From contig OZ024740.1 in NCBI GenBank assembly GCA_964016885.1, forward strand, positions 341,558,001 to 341,622,000: DNA of 64,000 bases, written 5' to 3'. The notes under the pieces were generated by a model. It saw only the letters and a list, made by a program, of their open reading frames with translations, was not told the DNA's origin and ran no database searches. The position numbers were made by a program, and so were the translations under genes. This document shows positions 12,306-63,463 of the stretch, in pieces; within the stretch, counting starts at the first letter, position 1; each line of letters opens with the position of its first letter. The DNA comes from Eledone cirrhosa (lineage: Eukaryota).

Positions 12306-12922
12306 CATGCATACACACCCGCACACATACATATATACATATACACATATACACATACATGCATGCATGCATGTATGTGTATATGTATATCTATGTGTAT
12401 CAGACATGTCACAAGAGCAATATGCAACATCTGTTCAATATCATATCATCTAATGCCACTTAAATATATATATATATATACACCCACATATATATATATA
12501 TATATGTATATGTGTGTGTACCTGTATGTGTGTGTGCATGTCTCAGTGTGCATATTTAGTTTACAGAAAGCAAGGAGAATTATAGAACAACTTCCTCTGT
12601 TAAATTGGTGGGTCTCTTCAGTTACATACCCTTTTCAACAAATACTCTGACATTTTGTTGTCAAGCAACACAAGCTGTAAGTTTCATCATAGCTTAAGTA
12701 GTCTTCATGTCTAATGTAACCCAGTAGGTTGACAGAGACAACTGTTCTGTGATTACCAAGCATTCTGCAAGCTGTATTGCCTATCACTTAACACTACTTT
12801 ATATATATATATATATACATACTTATTGTGGTTACATAACTTCTAATTGAATGGAAGGAAGTATGGGTGGCGTGTTGGTATAAAGGTAACACATTGGTCT
12901 GGCAAACCAAAGATGTGGGTTT

Positions 12923-13621: not shown

Positions 13622-16060
13622 ATGATGACAGAAGCAACTAGAAATAATAATACGATCGACTTGGTTTTCACCAACAACGAGGACACGCTATTTGACCTTC
13701 ACTCAACCCCAACAATCCTTTCAGACCACAATATTATTGAAATGCATTTACACATTGGTAATGAGCCCAATGACACAACTCTTAAACAAAAGGACATGCC
13801 AAAGCTATGCAGGTATGATTATCACCAGGCAAATTGGGAAACTATTAACAACCAGTTACAAATCATTGACTGGGATCTCTATCTTACTGGGCCAGATAAA
13901 CACAAGAAATTCTTAAACAAGATCGAAGAAATATGTGCAAAAAATATTCCTCTTAAGAAAACCAAATCCACAAAAAAACCTGTACCACAGGAGCAAAAGA
14001 TCCTGATGCGCAAAAGGTCAAGACTAAGAAACAAAACATCTAAGCTGACATCAAAATATGAACTACAGAAAGTCCTTGACCAAATATACAGATTAGAAGA
14101 CAATCTAAAACAACACTATGATGAAGAACGTAACAATGCAGAAAAGAGAGCCATAGAAAACATCAAGAAAAATCCAAAATGTTTCTACAGTTTTGCAAAG
14201 AAATACTCGAATACCAAGTCAACAATAGGACCTCTCCAGAGACAAAATGGGGATGTAGTGAATAACCCTATTGAAATGGCAGAAATGTTGGGTCAACAGT
14301 ATGAAAGTGTCTTCAGTGAGCCATCTAAAACCATGAAGATCCATGACCCAGGAGAATTCTTCAAGGATATCGACCATACTAAACCTACCCTATCCGACAT
14401 TGATTTCAACCCAGAAGACATAGAAAGAGCCATAGACAAGCTCTCCATGCACTCGGCTGCGGGGCCTGATGGTTTCAATGCCATGATACTTAAAAACTGC
14501 AAGGTACAATTGTTGAAACCCCTTTACATGATATGGAAGGAATCTATGGAGAATGGCAAAATACCAAATACATATAAAGAAGCACACATAACTCCAATAC
14601 ATAAAGGGGACAGCAAATCAAAACCAAAGAACTACCGACCAATCTCACCGACATCACACATTATCAAGGTCTTCGAAAGAATAGTTCGTGGAAAACTGGT
14701 TGAGTTCCTGGAATCCAACAATCTGATGAATTGCAATCAGCATGGATTCAGGTTAGGTAGATCATGTCTTTCCCAACTACTGGCACACCATGACCAAATC
14801 CTAGAAAATCTAGAGAATGGATACAACACAGATGTTATTTACCTCGACTTTGCCAAGGCATTTGACAAGGTAGATCATGGCATCCTGGGACACAAACTTC
14901 GAAAGCTAGGAGTAGGAGGAAAAGTTGGTACATGGATACATGAGTTCCTTACAAATAGAACTCAAACAGTCACTGTGAATGGAACCCATTCAACACCATC
15001 ACCTGTGACCAGCAGTGTTCCTCAGGGTACAGTACTCGGCCCGATCCTGTTTCTCATCCTCATCTCTGACATAGATGAAGATACAACTAGCAACGTCTCA
15101 TCCTTTGCTGATGACACCAGGGTCATGAGACAAATCAAAGATGAGGTGGATACAGAGGCCTTACAAAAGGACCTAACCACCATATACAAATGGCAGGAAA
15201 CAAACATGTTGTTCAATGATAAGAAGTTTGAACTAATTCGCTACGGAACAGATCAAGATCTGAAAAATACAACAAACTACAGAAACCCATCAGGACAACA
15301 AATAATGGAAAAACAGTGTGTGAAAGATTTAGGCATCCACATGGGAACCAGCCTAAAATTCAGAGAACACCTTGACTCAGACTGTCTTACTGCAAGAAAG
15401 TACAGCGAGTGGATCTTGCGCACCTTCAAATCAAGAGATACCTCAACAATGAAAACCCTCTGGAACAGTATGGTACTTCCGAGGATTGACTACTGTTCTC
15501 AGTTGTGGTCACCAACAACAAAGGGCCAACTATCTAAGATGGAATCGCTCCAAAGAAATTTTACCTCATACTTCTCAGAAACGAGGGACCTGGACTATTG
15601 GCAAAGACTCAGAACCTTGAAGATGTACTCAATAGAAAGAAGATTTGAGCGATACCGAATTATATACATTTGGAAAATGATAGAGCAAAAGGTACCAAAC
15701 TTTGGTATCAAAACCTACCACTCACTGCGCCACGGAAGACGCTGCCAGCTACCACCAATCAACAAAAGGGCTGGCCAGGCAGCAAAAACCCTGCGAGAGT
15801 CAAGTCTGTTGGTTCGAGGGGCACAACTATTCAACTCCATTCCGGTACATGTCAGAAATCTATCAGGATGCAGTGTGGAATCATTCAAATTGCAGCTGGA
15901 TAGATACTTAAGCACCATTAGAGATGAACCCCATCTCCCAGGATATACACAACGAGCACAAACTGACTCAAACTCGCTCCTACACATGTCAAAATTAAAC
16001 AGAGAATCCAACCTGGCAACCACACCAGACTCTGAGGGTGGAGTCTTCGACTTGGCCTGA
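13622..16060 (+). CDS. LINE ORF2 remainder: APE C-terminus and reverse transcriptase
   Basis: IDLVF, SDHN, NYRPIS, QHGFR, YLDFAKAFDKVDH, VPQGTVLGP, FADD, KDLGI. Confidence 0.92.
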   Translation: MMTEATRNNNTIDLVFTNNEDTLFDLHSTPTILSDHNIIEMHLHIGNEPNDTTLKQKDMPKLCRYDYHQANWETINNQLQIIDWDLYLTGPDKHKKFLNKIEEICAKNIPLKKTKSTKKPVPQEQKILMRKRSRLRNKTSKLTSKYELQKVLDQIYRLEDNLKQHYDEERNNAEKRAIENIKKNPKCFYSFAKKYSNTKSTIGPLQRQNGDVVNNPIEMAEMLGQQYESVFSEPSKTMKIHDPGEFFKDIDHTKPTLSDIDFNPEDIERAIDKLSMHSAAGPDGFNAMILKNCKVQLLKPLYMIWKESMENGKIPNTYKEAHITPIHKGDSKSKPKNYRPISPTSHIIKVFERIVRGKLVEFLESNNLMNCNQHGFRLGRSCLSQLLAHHDQILENLENGYNTDVIYLDFAKAFDKVDHGILGHKLRKLGVGGKVGTWIHEFLTNRTQTVTVNGTHSTPSPVTSSVPQGTVLGPILFLILISDIDEDTTSNVSSFADDTRVMRQIKDEVDTEALQKDLTTIYKWQETNMLFNDKKFELIRYGTDQDLKNTTNYRNPSGQQIMEKQCVKDLGIHMGTSLKFREHLDSDCLTARKYSEWILRTFKSRDTSTMKTLWNSMVLPRIDYCSQLWSPTTKGQLSKMESLQRNFTSYFSETRDLDYWQRLRTLKMYSIERRFERYRIIYIWKMIEQKVPNFGIKTYHSLRHGRRCQLPPINKRAGQAAKTLRESSLLVRGAQLFNSIPVHVRNLSGCSVESFKLQLDRYLSTIRDEPHLPGYTQRAQTDSNSLLHMSKLNRESNLATTPDSEGGVFDLA

Positions 16061-37499: not shown

Positions 37500-37877
37500 A
37501 TAATGGGCTACTCAGCCGTTAATATGGATAAGGTAAGTATATACGTTCAACAATCTGGCAGGAAGGTATACGTTGCTGACGATAGCTAATAAGCTTGAAA
37601 CTAGTACAGCGTTCCTTTGTCAGTATTGAACAAACGAGCAACGATGGTTGCTAGACACTATGGCTTAATACGGGATGTTTGTTTACAAACACACCGAGCA
37701 TTATAATAAATGTTCGGTGAATCCATACGTGCATATATGTATGTGTGCATGTATGTATATATATATACATACAACTGTACATCTGTATACATATATGTAT
37801 GTGCGTATACATACTTATATTTAAGTAACAGCCGTACTAAGAGTGGGAAATGAAATTTCGTTTCATTTTTTCCGTTT
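37500..37877 (+). mobile_element. Retrozyme-like HHR element, single truncated monomer (same family as 62458-63230)
   Basis: Closely matches 62835-63218; ends in (TA)n. Confidence 0.8.
37570..37612 (+). ncRNA. Minimal type I hammerhead ribozyme
   Basis: acgttg-CTGACGA-tagct-aata-agctt-GAAA-ctag-TA-cagcgt; palindromic ACTAGT stem III, GUA site, U-U at the base of stem II. Confidence 0.75.
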
Positions 37878-38099
37878 ATATATATATATATATATAAACG
37901 AAGATGATGATGTTTAACCCATGCTAGCGTGGAAAATGGACATTAAACGAAGATGATGATGATGATGATGATGAGGCTTATTCAACCCATGCCAGGATGG
38001 AAAAGCTACCCCTTTTGTTATATTTCTAATGAAAGATACACACTGCCTATAATTTTCAAATACTTTTGAAAATAATGAAGAATTTGGACAAATTTTGTA

Positions 38100-42047: not shown

Positions 42048-42117
42048 AAAAAAAAAGCATACTGATACATCTTTTACTTAGCACCCCTTATGTGCCAAAA
42101 ATATATTATTATATATT

Positions 42118-44080
42118 GGGCCTTCGGAAATAGTTGCTGAGATGCTGAAGGCATCTGGCACGGTGGGACACACCATGGTCACCCGCATAGTTAACCAAGT
42201 CGTACAGAATGGGGTTGTTCCGAAGGACTGGCATAGCAGCATCATCGTTAACTGTTATAAGGGTAAAGGAGACGCCCTAGATAGGAGTAACTATAGAGGC
42301 ATTAAATTAATCGACCAGGTCATGAAGGTCACGGAAAAAGTAATAGCGCAACTAATCAGAGAGAGAATTGATCTAGATGAAATGCAGTTCGGGTTTGTGT
42401 CAGGCAAAAGCACCACAGACGCTCTTTTCATAGTACGACAACTACAGGAGAAGTACCTAGCTAAAGGTAAACCCCTCTACTTAGCTTTTGTCGACCTGGA
42501 GAAAGCCTTCGACAGAGTCCCCCGCTCCATTATCTGGTGGGCTCTTAGAAAACTAGGCGTTGACGAATGGCTTGTGAGGGCTATACAAGCCATGTATAAA
42601 GAAACAGTCAGCAAGGTTAGAATTAACAACGAATATAGTGAAGAGTTTAGCGTAAAAGTTGGCGTCCATCAGGGCTCTGTTCTCAGCCCCCTACTATTTA
42701 TTATTGCCCTTCAGGCTATAACAGAGGAGTTCAAGACAGGCTGCCCATGGGAACTCCTATACGCAGACGACCTGACACTCATAGCGGAATCAATGGCCGA
42801 GCTAGAGAAGAAATTCCAAACATGGAAGCACGGCCTAGAGTCAAAAGGACTTAAAATTAACCTGGCTAAGACCAAAGTTCTAGTTTGTAGGAAAGAAAAC
42901 AAGGCGGCGGTCCCTTCTGGGAAATGGTCGTGCTCGGTATGTAGGAAAGGCGTAGGTAGAAACTCCATCTTATGTCCTAAATGCAAAGTATGGGTGCATA
43001 AAAGATGTAGTGGGATCACAGGTAAGCTAACTAAGAACATAGACTTTACATGTGGCCGGTGTTCTGGTGCAATAAGTAGCAGCAAGTGCCCACAAAATAC
43101 TAGCTCTTTCAATTGCGCAGAGGGTTCTATAGAAATAGTGGACAGCTTCCGTTACCTGGGCGATAAAATCAGCAGTGGGGGAGGGTGCTCTGAAAGTACT
43201 GTAGCTAGAGTCAGAACTGGTTGGAAAAAGTTCAGAGAGCTTATACCACTATTAGCTGCTAAAGGGTTCTCCCTAAAAATGAAAGGCAGGTTGTACGATG
43301 CCTGCATACGAACAGCAATGTTGCATGGTAGTGAGACCTGGGCATTGTGTGCAGAGGATATACGCAGACTAGAGAGGAACGAAGCTTGCATGCTCCGCTG
43401 GATGTGTAACAGTAATATACGTGAACGGCAAAGCATAAACGAACTAAGGAAAAAATTAGAGATAAGAGGGATCAGATGTTGTTTACTCGAGAGAAGGCTG
43501 CGTTGGTATGGACACGTGATGCGCATGAAAGTCGATAGCTGTATTACAAAGTGCAGGGCAATAAAGATAGACGGTAGCCACGGAATAGGCAGACCTAGAA
43601 AAACATGGGATGAGCTGATAAACTCCGACCTCACACACTTACACCTCTCCAAGACAATGTCACTGGACCGTGACCTTTGGCGGTACTCAGTAACAGAGAA
43701 GACCCGCCTTGCCAGTAGGCATCTCTAACAAAATACACCCCTCCCGCCGCCACCCCCACCCCATCCACACCACCCCGTTCTATGTAAAGTTATGTTGGTG
43801 CCGCGCCATCCAGGCCGAAACAAATGAGATCGTGTAGGTGTCACGACAAAAAAACACACAGTCCACGCTGTAATGTGGCCGTGTAGGCAACACGGTAAAA
43901 ACCTCCCAGACCCACACTGTAAATGTGGTTGGTGTTAGGAAGGGCATCCAACTGTAGAAAACCTGCCAGACAGTCCTATGCGAGCAAGACAATCACTCTT
44001 GCCTCAAGTGGGACTACCCCCGTCCAAACCCATGCAAGCGTGGAACACGGACGTTAAACGTTGATGATGATGATGATGAT
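42118..44080 (+). mobile_element. RTE LINE (PHD family), 5' truncated
   Basis: Uninterrupted RT ORF, 3'UTR, (GAT)n tail. Confidence 0.95.
42142..43728 (+). CDS. RTE ORF2 reverse transcriptase (N-truncated) with internal PHD-like finger
   Basis: NYRGIKL, QFGF, FVDLEKAFDRVP, GVHQGSVLSP, YADD, FRYLG. Confidence 0.92.
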   Translation: MLKASGTVGHTMVTRIVNQVVQNGVVPKDWHSSIIVNCYKGKGDALDRSNYRGIKLIDQVMKVTEKVIAQLIRERIDLDEMQFGFVSGKSTTDALFIVRQLQEKYLAKGKPLYLAFVDLEKAFDRVPRSIIWWALRKLGVDEWLVRAIQAMYKETVSKVRINNEYSEEFSVKVGVHQGSVLSPLLFIIALQAITEEFKTGCPWELLYADDLTLIAESMAELEKKFQTWKHGLESKGLKINLAKTKVLVCRKENKAAVPSGKWSCSVCRKGVGRNSILCPKCKVWVHKRCSGITGKLTKNIDFTCGRCSGAISSSKCPQNTSSFNCAEGSIEIVDSFRYLGDKISSGGGCSESTVARVRTGWKKFRELIPLLAAKGFSLKMKGRLYDACIRTAMLHGSETWALCAEDIRRLERNEACMLRWMCNSNIRERQSINELRKKLEIRGIRCCLLERRLRWYGHVMRMKVDSCITKCRAIKIDGSHGIGRPRKTWDELINSDLTHLHLSKTMSLDRDLWRYSVTEKTRLASRHL

Positions 44081-46069: not shown

Positions 46070-48694
46070 ATCATCATCATCATCATCATCATCAGGTTTA
46101 GCGTCCGTGTTCCACGCTTGCATGGGTTTGGACGGGGGTTTTCCCACTTGAGGCAAGAGTGGTTGTCTTGCTCGCATAGGACTGTCTGGCGGGTTTTCTA
46201 CAGTTGGATGCCCTTCCTAACACCAACCACATTTACAGTGTGGGGCTGGGAGGTTTTTACCGTGTTGCCTACACGGCCACATTACAGCGTGGACTGTCTG
46301 GCGGGTTTTCTACAGCTGGATGCCCTTCCTAACACCAACCACATTTACAGTGTGGGGCTGGGAGGTTTTTACCGTGTTGCCTACACGGCCAGATTTACAG
46401 CGTGGACTGTGTGTTTTTTGTCGTGACACCTACACGATCTCATTTGTTTCGGCCTGGATGTTGTGGGACCAACATAACTTTACATTGAAAGGGGCGGTGT
46501 GGGTGGGGTGGAGGTGGTGGGACGGGGGTGTGTTTTGATAGAGGTGCCTACTGACTGTAGTAGGTTTTTACTTTGTATTTAGGTAAGGCGGGTCTTCTCT
46601 ATTACTGAGTACCGCCAAAGGTCTCGGTCCAGTGACATTGTCTTGGAGAGGTGTAAGCGTGTGAGGTCGGAATTTATCAGCTCGTCCCATGTTTTTCTGG
46701 GTCTGCCTACTCCGTGGCTACCGTCTATCTTTATTGCCCTGCACTTTGTTATACAGCTGTCGTCTTTCATGCGCATCACGTGACCGTACCAACGTAGCCT
46801 TCTCTCGAGTAAACAACATCTGATCCCTCTTATTTCTAATTTTTTCCTTAGTTCGTTTATGCTTTGCCGTTCACGTATATTACTATTGCACATCCAGCGG
46901 AGCATGCAAGCTTCGTTCCTCTCTAGTCTGCGTATATCCTCTGCACACAATGCCCAGGTCTCACCGCCATGCAGCATTGCTGTTCGTATGCAGGCATCGT
47001 ATAACCTGCCTTTCATTTTTAGGGAGAACCCTCTAGCGGCTAATAGTGGTATAAGCTCTCTGAACTTTTTCCATCCAGTTCTGACTCTAGCTACTGTACT
47101 TTCAGAGCACCCTCCCCCACTGCTGATTTTGTCACCCAGATAACGGAAGCTGTCCACTATTTCTATAGAACCCTCTGCGCAGTTGAAGGAGCTAGTATTT
47201 TGTGGGCACTTGCTGCTACTTATTGCACCAGAGCACCGGCCACATGTAAAATCTATGTTCTTAGTTAGCTTACCTGTGATCCCACTACATCTTTTATGCA
47301 CCCATACTTTGCATTTGGGATATAAAATGGAGTTTCTACCTACGCCTTTCCTACACACTGAGCATGGCCATTTCCCCGATGGGACCGCCGCCTTATTTTC
47401 TTTCCTACAAACTAGAACTTTAGTCTTAGCCAGGTTAATTTTAAGGCCTTTTGATTCTAGGCCGTGCTTCCACGTTTGGAATTTCTTCTCTAGTTCGGTC
47501 ATTGATTCAGCTATGAGCGTTAGATCATCTGCGTATAGGAGTTCCCATGGGCAGCCGGTCTTGAACTCCTCTGTTATAGCCTGAAGGGCAATAATAAATA
47601 GTAGGGGGCTAAGTACAGAGCCCTGATGGACACCAACTTTTACGCTAAACTCTTCACTATATTCGTTGTTAATTCTAACCTTACTGACTGTTTCTTTATA
47701 CATGGCTTGTATAGCTCTCACAAGCCATTCGTCAACACCTAGTTTTCTAAGAGACCACCAGATAATGGAACGGGGGACTCTGTCGAAGGCTTTCTCCAAG
47801 TCGACAAAAGCTAAGTATAGGGGTTTACTTTTAGCTAGGTACTTCTCCTGTAGTTGTCGTACAATGAAAAGAGCGTCTGTGGTACTTTTGCCTGACACAA
47901 ACCCGAACTGCATTTCATCTAGATCAATTCTCTCTCTGATTAGTTGCGCTATTACTTTTTCCGTGACCTTCATGACCTGGTCGATTAATTTAATGCCTCT
48001 ATAGTTACTCCTATCTAGGGCATCTCCTTTTCCCTTATAGCAGTTAACGATGATGCTGCTACGCCATTCCTTCGGAACAACCCCATTCTGTACAACTTGG
48101 TTAACTATCCGGGTGACCATGGTGTGTCCCACCGAACCAGATGCCTTCAGCATCTCAGCAACTATTTCCGAAGGCCCAGCCGCCTTACCCGTCTTCATAT
48201 CTTTGATTGCCTTACTTATTATACTACCTTTAACTAACACTGCTGGTCCCTCTATTGGATCGATCTGGGGGAGACTGTCTTTCTCCCATTTGTTCTCCTC
48301 ATTTAGAAGCCTTTCGTAGTGACACTTCCAAGCTACCTTCTTATCAGCGTCGGTGATGGCAAGTATGCCATCATCGTTAAGTACACACTTCTCCCCGACA
48401 ATATCACGGTTTTCCTTGACACATTGCCTGGCAATCCTGAACACCTCACGTTTTTGGTCCTCACGTTGTAGAACATGCTTGAACTTTCTTTCCTCTGCTT
48501 CCCTTCTTGCGAAGTACACTTGTCTCCTAGCTTCCCTCCTGGCCACTTGATAGTCTTCTCTACTTCCCCCATCCCGCCATACTTTCCAAGCCTGCTTTTT
48601 GGCCTTAATTGACTCCTCCACCTTACTGTTCCACCACCATGTTACTCTCCTCCTACCTACAGGCCTGCTCCAGCCACAGACTTCGTCTGCCGCC
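46070..48694 (-). mobile_element. RTE LINE (PHD family), longest copy, 5' truncated
   Basis: Open frame from AADEVCG..TWWWN through RT to the stop; 3'UTR with duplicated module; tail. Confidence 0.95.
46579..48621 (-). CDS. RTE ORF2 reverse transcriptase (APE missing by truncation)
   Basis: GKAAGP, NYRGIKL, DLEKAFD, QGSVLSP, YADD; one PHD cysteine changed to Tyr (SILYPKC). Confidence 0.92.
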   Translation of the reverse strand: MEESIKAKKQAWKVWRDGGSREDYQVARREARRQVYFARREAEERKFKHVLQREDQKREVFRIARQCVKENRDIVGEKCVLNDDGILAITDADKKVAWKCHYERLLNEENKWEKDSLPQIDPIEGPAVLVKGSIISKAIKDMKTGKAAGPSEIVAEMLKASGSVGHTMVTRIVNQVVQNGVVPKEWRSSIIVNCYKGKGDALDRSNYRGIKLIDQVMKVTEKVIAQLIRERIDLDEMQFGFVSGKSTTDALFIVRQLQEKYLAKSKPLYLAFVDLEKAFDRVPRSIIWWSLRKLGVDEWLVRAIQAMYKETVSKVRINNEYSEEFSVKVGVHQGSVLSPLLFIIALQAITEEFKTGCPWELLYADDLTLIAESMTELEKKFQTWKHGLESKGLKINLAKTKVLVCRKENKAAVPSGKWPCSVCRKGVGRNSILYPKCKVWVHKRCSGITGKLTKNIDFTCGRCSGAISSSKCPQNTSSFNCAEGSIEIVDSFRYLGDKISSGGGCSESTVARVRTGWKKFRELIPLLAARGFSLKMKGRLYDACIRTAMLHGGETWALCAEDIRRLERNEACMLRWMCNSNIRERQSINELRKKLEIRGIRCCLLERRLRWYGHVMRMKDDSCITKCRAIKIDGSHGVGRPRKTWDELINSDLTRLHLSKTMSLDRDLWRYSVIEKTRLT

Positions 48695-61900: not shown

Positions 61901-62457
61901 GAGGAGAAGGAGAAGAGTGAAGAGGAAGGGAATGATGATGATTATGATTATTAATTTTGCCAATTGCCAAAAATGTAGAAAGAGTTAGATACTACAGCCT
62001 GCAAGTTTGATCTATTATAATCCATGCAATGACTCAGAGGCTGGCCCAATGCTGTTGATCACACAAATGCATGACATAGATAAAAAGAAAAAAGATAACA
62101 TTCATATCCATTTCTACTCTCTTTAGTTTATGTCAATGTCCTTCTTCAGTCTTTGAAATATAATGACTGTGACTATCTAGTCAGTTAGCTGCAGTCAGAG
62201 ATGGAAATTTGACAGAAATGGTTTATGTAAAGGAAACTGGAGAATCAGTAATAGTCTTAACATCCTGTGCTGTATGAAACTGCATTAACAAGACATTCTT
62301 AACAAAAAGCAAACAAAAAACTACACTATGACTGCATCACATTGAAAATTTATGTATTTTCTGTAATGTTGCAAACTTTCATGAAGATTTGTCTAATAGT
62401 AAAGATACTACAAGCATTTGAATTAACAAACCCACTTTTAGATATTTTCTATTAAAT

Positions 62458-63230
62458 GATTACAGTATATATAAGTATGTATACGTACATACATATATGT
62501 ATACAAACGTATATATATATACATACATGCACACATATATATATGTACGTATGGATTCACCGGCTTAATTCACGGCTTAATACGGGATGTTTGTTTACAA
62601 AACACCGAGCATTATAATAAATGTTCGGTGAATCCATACGTACATATATATATGTGTGCATGTATGTATATATATATACATACTACTGTACGTCTGTATA
62701 CATATATGTATGTACGTATACATACTTATATTTAAGTAACAGCCGTACTAAGAGTGGGAAATGAAATTTCCTTTTATTTTTTTCCGTTTTATCGTTTTCG
62801 GTGCACCCGGCCGATTAACCCACTCGATATGCAAATTAGGCTGCTCAGCTGTTAATATGCATAAGAAAGTATATACTTTCAGATGTTCAATCATCTGGCA
62901 GGAAGGTATACATTGCTGACGATAGCTAATAAGCTTGAAACTAGTACAGCGTTCCTTTGTCAGTGTTGAACAAACGAGCAACGATGGTTGCTGGACACTA
63001 CGGCTTAATACGGAATGTTTGTTTACAAACACACTGAGCATTATAATAAATGTTCGGTGAATCCATATGTACATATATATATGTGTGCATGTATGTATAT
63101 ATAAATATATACATACTACTGTACGTCTGTATACATATATGTATGTACGTATACATATTTATATTTAAGTAACAGCCGTACTAAGAGTGGGAAATGAAAT
63201 TTTGTTTCATTTTTTCCGATTACAGTATAT
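62458..63230 (+). mobile_element. Retrozyme-like non-autonomous Penelope-type insertion: inverted segment plus ~1.5 tandem 428-nt monomers, 13-bp TSD
   Basis: TSD GATTACAGTATAT at 62458-62470 and 63218-63230; cggcttaatacgg at 62573 and 63001; 62471-62561 is the inverse of 62628-62730; HHR at 62910. Confidence 0.8.
62910..62952 (+). ncRNA. Minimal type I hammerhead ribozyme
   Basis: acattg-CTGACGA-tagct-aata-agctt-GAAA-ctag-TA-cagcgt; core identical to the 37570 copy. Confidence 0.75.
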
Positions 63231-63463
63231 TAAGAGTTAAACTAGTGTGTTTGTGTTGAACTCGATCAGTTTTGACAAGAGATGTTCCAGTTGTTTGAAC
63301 AATAGAACAGCCTGCTCATGAGAATGTGTAAGTGGCTGAGCATTCCACCGAAACATGCAACATTAATGTAGTTTTCAGGACCTCTATTGGCCATAATGAC
63401 AAGTGCTTCAGTTGATTGATCTATGGGACAAATTGGTTGTGAAATTAATAGACATGTGTATCC

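Follow-up and report, generated by a model that had tools for sequence, protein, structure and literature searches.

We consider with good confidence that the insertion at positions 62,458–63,230 of the window (the whole 64,000-nt stretch of Eledone cirrhosa DNA analysed here) is a copy of a hammerhead-bearing non-LTR retrozyme made by a Penelope-like reverse transcriptase-endonuclease, and that both cut target strands likely served as primers for the copying. Taken alone, the locus is an unremarkable, ageing copy; the value of its family lies in being short, abundant and in part very young, which provides statistics on how Penelope-type inverted insertions form and on whether circles are their templates.

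Architecture of the insertion and its hammerhead

The insertion comprises 773 bp and is made up of a TSD, an inverted arm, a linker, a half monomer and a full monomer with one hammerhead. Sequence comparison in the window thus confirmed the layout proposed in the initial annotation, namely a 13-bp TSD, an inverted segment of ~90 bp, and a partial plus a full monomer with one hammerhead. The TSD, GATTACAGTATAT, has exactly two matches in the 64-kb window, at 62,458–62,470 and 63,218–63,230, and none on the opposite strand; the terminal AT of the left copy is compatible with the inverted arm too, and the first G of the right copy is also the last base of the element. Monomer coordinates (q) start at window position 62,787, the first base of the full monomer, with the predicted ribozyme cut after q160. 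The 94-nt inverted arm (62,469–62,562; minus strand, the other parts of the insertion being on the plus strand) has its outer end at a site common to the family, site A (q~376–378), and its inner end at q269; positions 62,466–62,562 are the reverse complement of 63,055–63,167 and of the matching part of the half monomer, from which the arm differs by one internal mismatch and a 12-nt internal deletion. A 9-nt linker between the arms (62,563–62,571), which is a local duplication of CGGCTTAAT, is followed by the 5′-truncated, upstream half monomer (62,572–62,786; q214–432), a pseudo-LTR-like partial tandem without a hammerhead that ends 4 nt before the boundary first placed at 62,790. The half monomer is 94.4% identical over 216 nt (5.6% difference) to the full 432-nt monomer (62,787–63,218; 35% GC), whose outer end is the second family site, B. 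The tandem period, initially given as 428 nt, has that value where the overlap begins and, owing to indels, is 432 nt where it ends. The ~55 nt between sites A and B (63,163–63,218) constitute a tail that is found at one end of two-armed insertions.

An older host repeat (62,255–63,240, strand not assigned; ~77% identity to its paralogues) is split at its end by the insertion. Three of the four paralogues examined carry a single TSD-like copy joined straight to the right flank, so that the repeat at 62,458 and 63,218 is a true duplication. A clean TSD, as found here, is unusual, since most relatives touch (TA)n. The older repeat has 3,456 first-look candidates at ~77% identity, with the terminus TTAAGAGTTAA, and it looks MITE-like. 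The whole locus, including the insertion, is duplicated 751 kb downstream (L001, G000:C1:342370294-342373563), with 2,693 of 2,694 aligned bases identical and a further 7 kb at 99.6%, pointing either to a duplicate in the assembly or to a segmental duplication that happened recently; this filled copy was the sole find in a search of the assembly for an empty allele. Likewise, none of the listed matches of contigs from runs X1–X4 to the left flank, the only flank compared, bridged the insertion site.

An independent, one-armed second copy (37,506–37,879, plus strand), belonging to another subfamily haplotype and with an intact helix I, matches the monomer of the insertion from 37,506 with 90.8% identity. 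As first noticed, it stops at the same terminal position: it has the same TTTTTTCCG(TTTAT) end running into (TA)n as the B-type end of the insertion.

The hammerhead of the full monomer is of type I (62,910–62,952, plus strand) and was called by its core motif and helix pairing, not by Rfam, which returned no hammerhead over the whole window at gathering score or in the second copy at E ≤ 10. Its core is CUGACGA...GAAA...GUA, with CUGACGA starting at 62,916 and GUA at 62,944–62,946, and cleavage is predicted after A62946; helix I has 6 bp, helix II 4 bp over a U–U pair, and helix III 2 bp within the palindrome ACUAGU. By core and helices, a type I hammerhead is present in each unit, as in non-LTR retrozymes. 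Among 16 copies, 93% of the cells in the structure are paired and one helix I pair varies as AU/GU/UG, which lends modest support to the hammerhead structure, the rows being related and the structure itself drawn from them. In the insertion, A62912 creates an A–C mismatch in helix I where most copies have G–C, and the predicted pairing of this helix is 0–0.05, vs. 0.45–0.94 in the second copy. Upstream of the hammerhead, positions 62,827–62,878 contain a ATGCAAAT word and a palindrome that are kept across subfamilies; we presume them to be an octamer-like word and a TATA-like palindrome, possibly forming an internal promoter.

The sizes of helices I, II and III are those of canonical metazoan type I hammerheads, which are thought to work as dimers (available text of PMC4209133), and helices I and II agree with the "canonical" retrozyme hammerheads, not with the minimal type of Penelope-like elements. 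A U–U at the base of helix II is likewise described for the axolotl HHR_Amex2 (PMC7229834, as accessible). Two consecutive hammerheads define an "active" element in the accessible text of Li et al. (10.64898/2026.07.22.740005), where in vitro cleavage failed in eight out of nine retrozyme dimers from Xenopus; loci L131, L134 and L228 contain two consecutive complete hammerheads, whereas the locus under study, with one, differs from the "active" retrozymes of that work. Having a single, weakened hammerhead, the insertion cannot release unit-length RNA by double cleavage.

The insertion differs by ~3% from the column majority, and much younger copies exist; additionally, several of its monomer differences are transitions of CpG type, the kind produced by decay after insertion. 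It is therefore a moderately decayed copy, neither very recent nor likely a source of circles. This weakens two initial suggestions, that the insertion was recent and that this locus was a candidate for forming circular RNA, the latter also because it has only one hammerhead, with helix I predicted unpaired.

Family structure and priming of the arms

Exact-pattern searches of the 3.0-Gb genome (G000) retrieved at least 10,046 hammerhead cores (0 with the reversed control), 13,270 matches to the 23-mer just downstream of the core, 4,447 junctions of B to the start of the next monomer, and, running into (TA)n, 4,059 ends of type A and 3,450 of type B; the A-to-start junction, searched genome-wide in a single form, gave 0 matches. 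Among the first 100 cores listed, 22 fall in nine same-strand clusters. Two sets of loci were analysed: one of 91 pattern-chosen loci, all within the initial 37 Mb of contig C1, and one of 28 top BLAST hits. The unit is ~425 nt long (420–432 nt in the subfamily of the insertion), has 35% GC and is non-coding, with a longest ATG ORF of 40 aa in sense and 99 aa in antisense, and its structure is retained in subfamilies that are 70–95% alike. It thus falls within the 150–450 bp of the short, low-GC, non-coding tandem units of non-LTR retrozymes, with one sister subfamily at ~475 nt. Genomic dimers and multimers, which also characterise non-LTR retrozymes and which the initial annotation looked to as a test, do exist genome-wide: besides the 4,447 junctions, there are arrays of up to ~40 units, and L228 has nine near-identical monomers spread over both arms. 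(TA)n is contacted at one or both ends by 88 of 101 insertions, so that the family has the AT-rich or microsatellite target of Penelope-type elements, the present locus with its clean TSD being the exception; a TSD census was uninformative, most flanks being (TA)n.

The ~475-nt sister subfamily (L091:7277-8501, L197–L226 and L229) is 70–75% identical to the window monomer, has a longer TA tract and shows the same two ends A and B; it includes an 11-mer arm. Its scored hits include 24 out of 40 at top score, with 100% identity over 201 nt, and judged from this sequence identity the subfamily is very young.

The arms of the relatives have variable inner ends, and their outer ends are mostly fixed at A (q~376–381) or B (q432 plus TTTAT), ~55 nt apart. 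The 91 pattern-chosen loci contain 50 two-armed insertions, and in the 33 with both ends classed the pair was always one A plus one B (17 AB, 16 BA, 0 AA, 0 BB; p = 2e-10 against 50%). An end at neither site was seen in the other 17 of the 50, probably due to later deletions or insertions. The top-hit set included 16 two-armed insertions, of which ten were AB or BA, five unclassed and one AA (L014); the "A" segment of the latter sits inside a B-ended arm. The longer arm was the A arm in 17 of the 33 pairs and the B arm in 16. Together with the two fixed 3′ ends and a one-ended tail, the locus displays the partial tandem and adjacent inverted 5′-truncated copy of Penelope-type insertions. Its initial description as a retrozyme-like, non-coding, Penelope-type insertion is supported.

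The inverted arm likely arose from a second priming event of its own and not from the foldback with which the initial annotation had the reverse transcription finishing. Self-priming is put forward as a hypothesis for Penelope inversions (PMC3846280, as far as accessible), and would here imply that the first cDNA folded back and primed its own copying, the endonuclease trimming one end. Such an origin agrees with the 20 of 33 pairs, and with the present locus, in which one arm is contained within the other, with three pairs that have matching inner ends (≤10 nt apart) and short palindromes, and with the inverted arm here being nearer to the half than to the full monomer. Foldback requires, though, that one arm be copied from the other, and in 13 of the 33 pairs neither arm lies inside the other; they could not have templated each other, which excludes foldback for those 13 and argues that it is not the general route. 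Additionally, inner ends are more than 10 nt apart in 30 of the 33 pairs, and either arm can be the longer. At the present locus the arm starts at fixed site A and the inner ends, q269 and q214, do not coincide. We hence regard foldback as improbable, and the arm data fit two priming events, at A and B, each from a different DNA strand.

Under this twin priming, a Penelope-like reverse transcriptase-endonuclease would nick both target strands ~13 bp apart; one DNA 3′ end would prime at B and be extended over 1.5 monomers, and the other would prime at A and be extended over 94 nt. The two cDNAs would then be joined head to head through microhomology and slippage, the CGGCTTAAT linker likely reflecting a slip and re-priming at the joining of the arms. 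As a rule, the two arms would derive from one RNA, or from RNAs nearly identical to each other, reaching across the B-to-start junction and the ribozyme site in its uncut state. In the available text of PMC11167929, the Penelope-like protein PAc, a predicted dimer, cuts and extends both strands in vitro; its two internal start sites delimit the tail, and it used unprocessed RNA. The A-plus-B rule and the non-nested arms match this recent in vitro work and favour twin priming over the published self-priming hypothesis. A more specific version is that a dimeric Penelope-like protein acted on one circular RNA, with two reverse transcriptases rolling from A and B, each primed by one strand, which would leave one end of each type on every inverted insertion; we advance it tentatively, as a serious possibility short of an even chance. 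If true, the family would prove from genome sequence that twin-primed rolling-circle retrotransposition occurs, and its very young subfamily would allow the process to be observed under way.

Coding partner and template RNA

Coding elements with RT and GIY-YIG domains are abundant in the genome (10,597 GIY-YIG candidates), and several are Neptune-like and inserted in (TA)n. From the insertion signature that they share with the retrozyme, the latter would be mobilised by these resident coding Penelope-like elements. At least four families with RT and C-terminal GIY-YIG (L081:1991-5062, L082, L084 and L094) have a CxxxxCxxC motif before the nuclease, and are like Neptune by the description available in PMC8557442. 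In L081 an open frame starting with Met extends over 1,024 aa, and some coding families have hammerhead-like variants, e.g., with UUGAAAA cores. The coding two-armed copies L081 and L093 also show the tail at one end only. No coding partner was found via the GIY-YIG hits or the most divergent subfamily, and no resemblance to the monomer was found in 34 coding loci, representing few families of the 10,597 candidates.

The unit could in principle be only the pLTR of a coding Penelope-like element with 5′-truncated copies, a reading we hold to be very improbable. The layout does match that of Pen2a_Av (inverted pLTR, direct pLTR, tail and a 9-bp TSD; accessible part of PMC3846280), and the hits examined were 36 of the 150 listed among 10,597 GIY-YIG candidates. 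L091 and L092, which contain retrozyme insertions, were left out of the 34-locus comparison. Against it, B is joined directly to the next monomer at all 122 tandem junctions, with no intervening ORF, and thus without the RT and GIY-YIG ORF that lies between the repeats of an autonomous element; furthermore, arrays reach ~40 units, the unit structure is kept across subfamilies 70–95% alike, and the monomer matches no coding element's end in the 34 coding loci, as the initial annotation had anticipated for a monomer that is not merely a pLTR.

As to the RNA that was copied, all the tandem junctions are B-to-start and no accumulation of inner ends is seen at the ribozyme cut (three of 157 at q156–166, vs. 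~4 expected if uniform), so the template likely spans both the junction and the cut site. An apparent pile-up at q2 (17 of 157) was discarded, being mostly due to short upstream pieces missed by BLAST. Our confidence that the template was a ligated monomer circle is evenly poised; an uncleaved linear multimer is a real contender that falls somewhat short of that. Monomers differ by 3.7–4.2% within one insertion and by 8.0–8.5% between loci (L131 left out), and in insertions with at least three overlapping segments 248 variants were private, 104 were present in all and 37 in a subset, a count from which nine loci were excluded because their insertions were adjacent or had expanded. Together with L228, this homogeneity fits either a single circle that served both enzymes or a single homogeneous multimer left uncut. 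Conversely, the insertions at L183, L138 and L184 are subfamily mosaics, and these count against a single monomer circle, which does not give them.

Such mosaics, a minority of the arrays (L183, L138), would be accounted for if tandems arose by the reverse transcriptase jumping between cleaved linear monomers, with neither a circle nor a multimer as template. Jumping is nevertheless unlikely, in view of the absence of an inner-end pile-up at the cut, of the switch in L183 lying between columns 215 and 395, away from the cut, and of the haplotypes, which the arms of one insertion mostly share: discordance was 13.8%, while in comparisons between loci it was 47.3%, and three loci in which separate insertions are chained account for 40 of the 94 discordances. 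If circles are made, they would come from arrays with at least two hammerheads, not from the single-ribozyme insertion. In coral, mussel and axolotl, retrozymes are expressed as circles, which are proposed as templates (PMC7229834, accessible text). The predicted folding of the unit has a z-score of −8.3 (40 shuffles), much of which is likely due to TA-rich palindromes, and we do not take it as evidence for a circle. A circle closed at A62946 would have the genomic sequence, so that junction reads and divergent-primer products would also be expected from linear multimers.

Arrays L097, L227 and L230–L231, which show period-2 or higher-order variants, grew by duplication at the DNA level, and multimers alone are therefore no proof of rolling-circle copying. 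Period-2 arrays were considered as evidence for dimeric circles and rejected, because the opposite arm and the 5′-most part lack the repeated variants (L097, L227). These arrays, together with a satellite of ~40 units derived from the retrozyme monomer, offer a view of the birth of a satellite from a retrozyme. Separately, L139 contains two distinct two-armed insertions, each tandemly duplicated after insertion.

Relation to known elements

The Eledone cirrhosa family is a further non-LTR retrozyme, of a type already argued to be non-autonomous Penelope-like sequences (PMC7229834; 10.64898/2026.07.22.740005, available portions of both). According to the same portions, it shares with metazoan non-LTR retrozymes a non-coding tandem unit of 150–450 bp with a type I hammerhead, a GC content below 50%, TSDs longer than 4 bp, thousands of copies, a predicted circle that is self-paired, and coexistence with coding Penelope-like elements. 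It differs from them in its species-specific sequence. The portions available of these two sources contain no description of fixed ends, tail or inverted arms.

With EN+ Penelope-like elements the family shares the partial tandem, the adjacent inverted 5′-truncated copy and the one-ended tail, already known in that group; the preference for (TA)n is common to Neptune and Naiad, with a TSD where the target is not a microsatellite (PMC8557442 and PMC3846280, as accessible). It differs from them in lacking an ORF and in its tail of ~55 nt, vs. 30–40 nt in theirs. Non-autonomous Chlamys elements (MRC1) are similarly non-coding Penelope-type units with pLTRs and head-to-tail multimers; however, in the accessible text of PMC8557442 their 3′ ends generally resemble those of an autonomous family, and hammerheads are absent from most Chlamys, whereas the Eledone cirrhosa family has a hammerhead and no partner was matched to it. 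The present data provide insertion-level evidence for a hammerhead retrozyme moving by Penelope machinery, the earlier case, in the portions available, having consisted of co-occurrence and repeat similarity. The literature covered, with few subscription papers and without Repbase or supplements, yielded no description of the family and no A-plus-B count.

Elsewhere in the window, long open frames at 13,622–16,060, 42,082–43,728 and 46,579–48,693 are by eye LINE-RT-like, the latter two forming a 1.6-kb inverted pair, and tRNA-like heads occur at 12,869 and 5,543.
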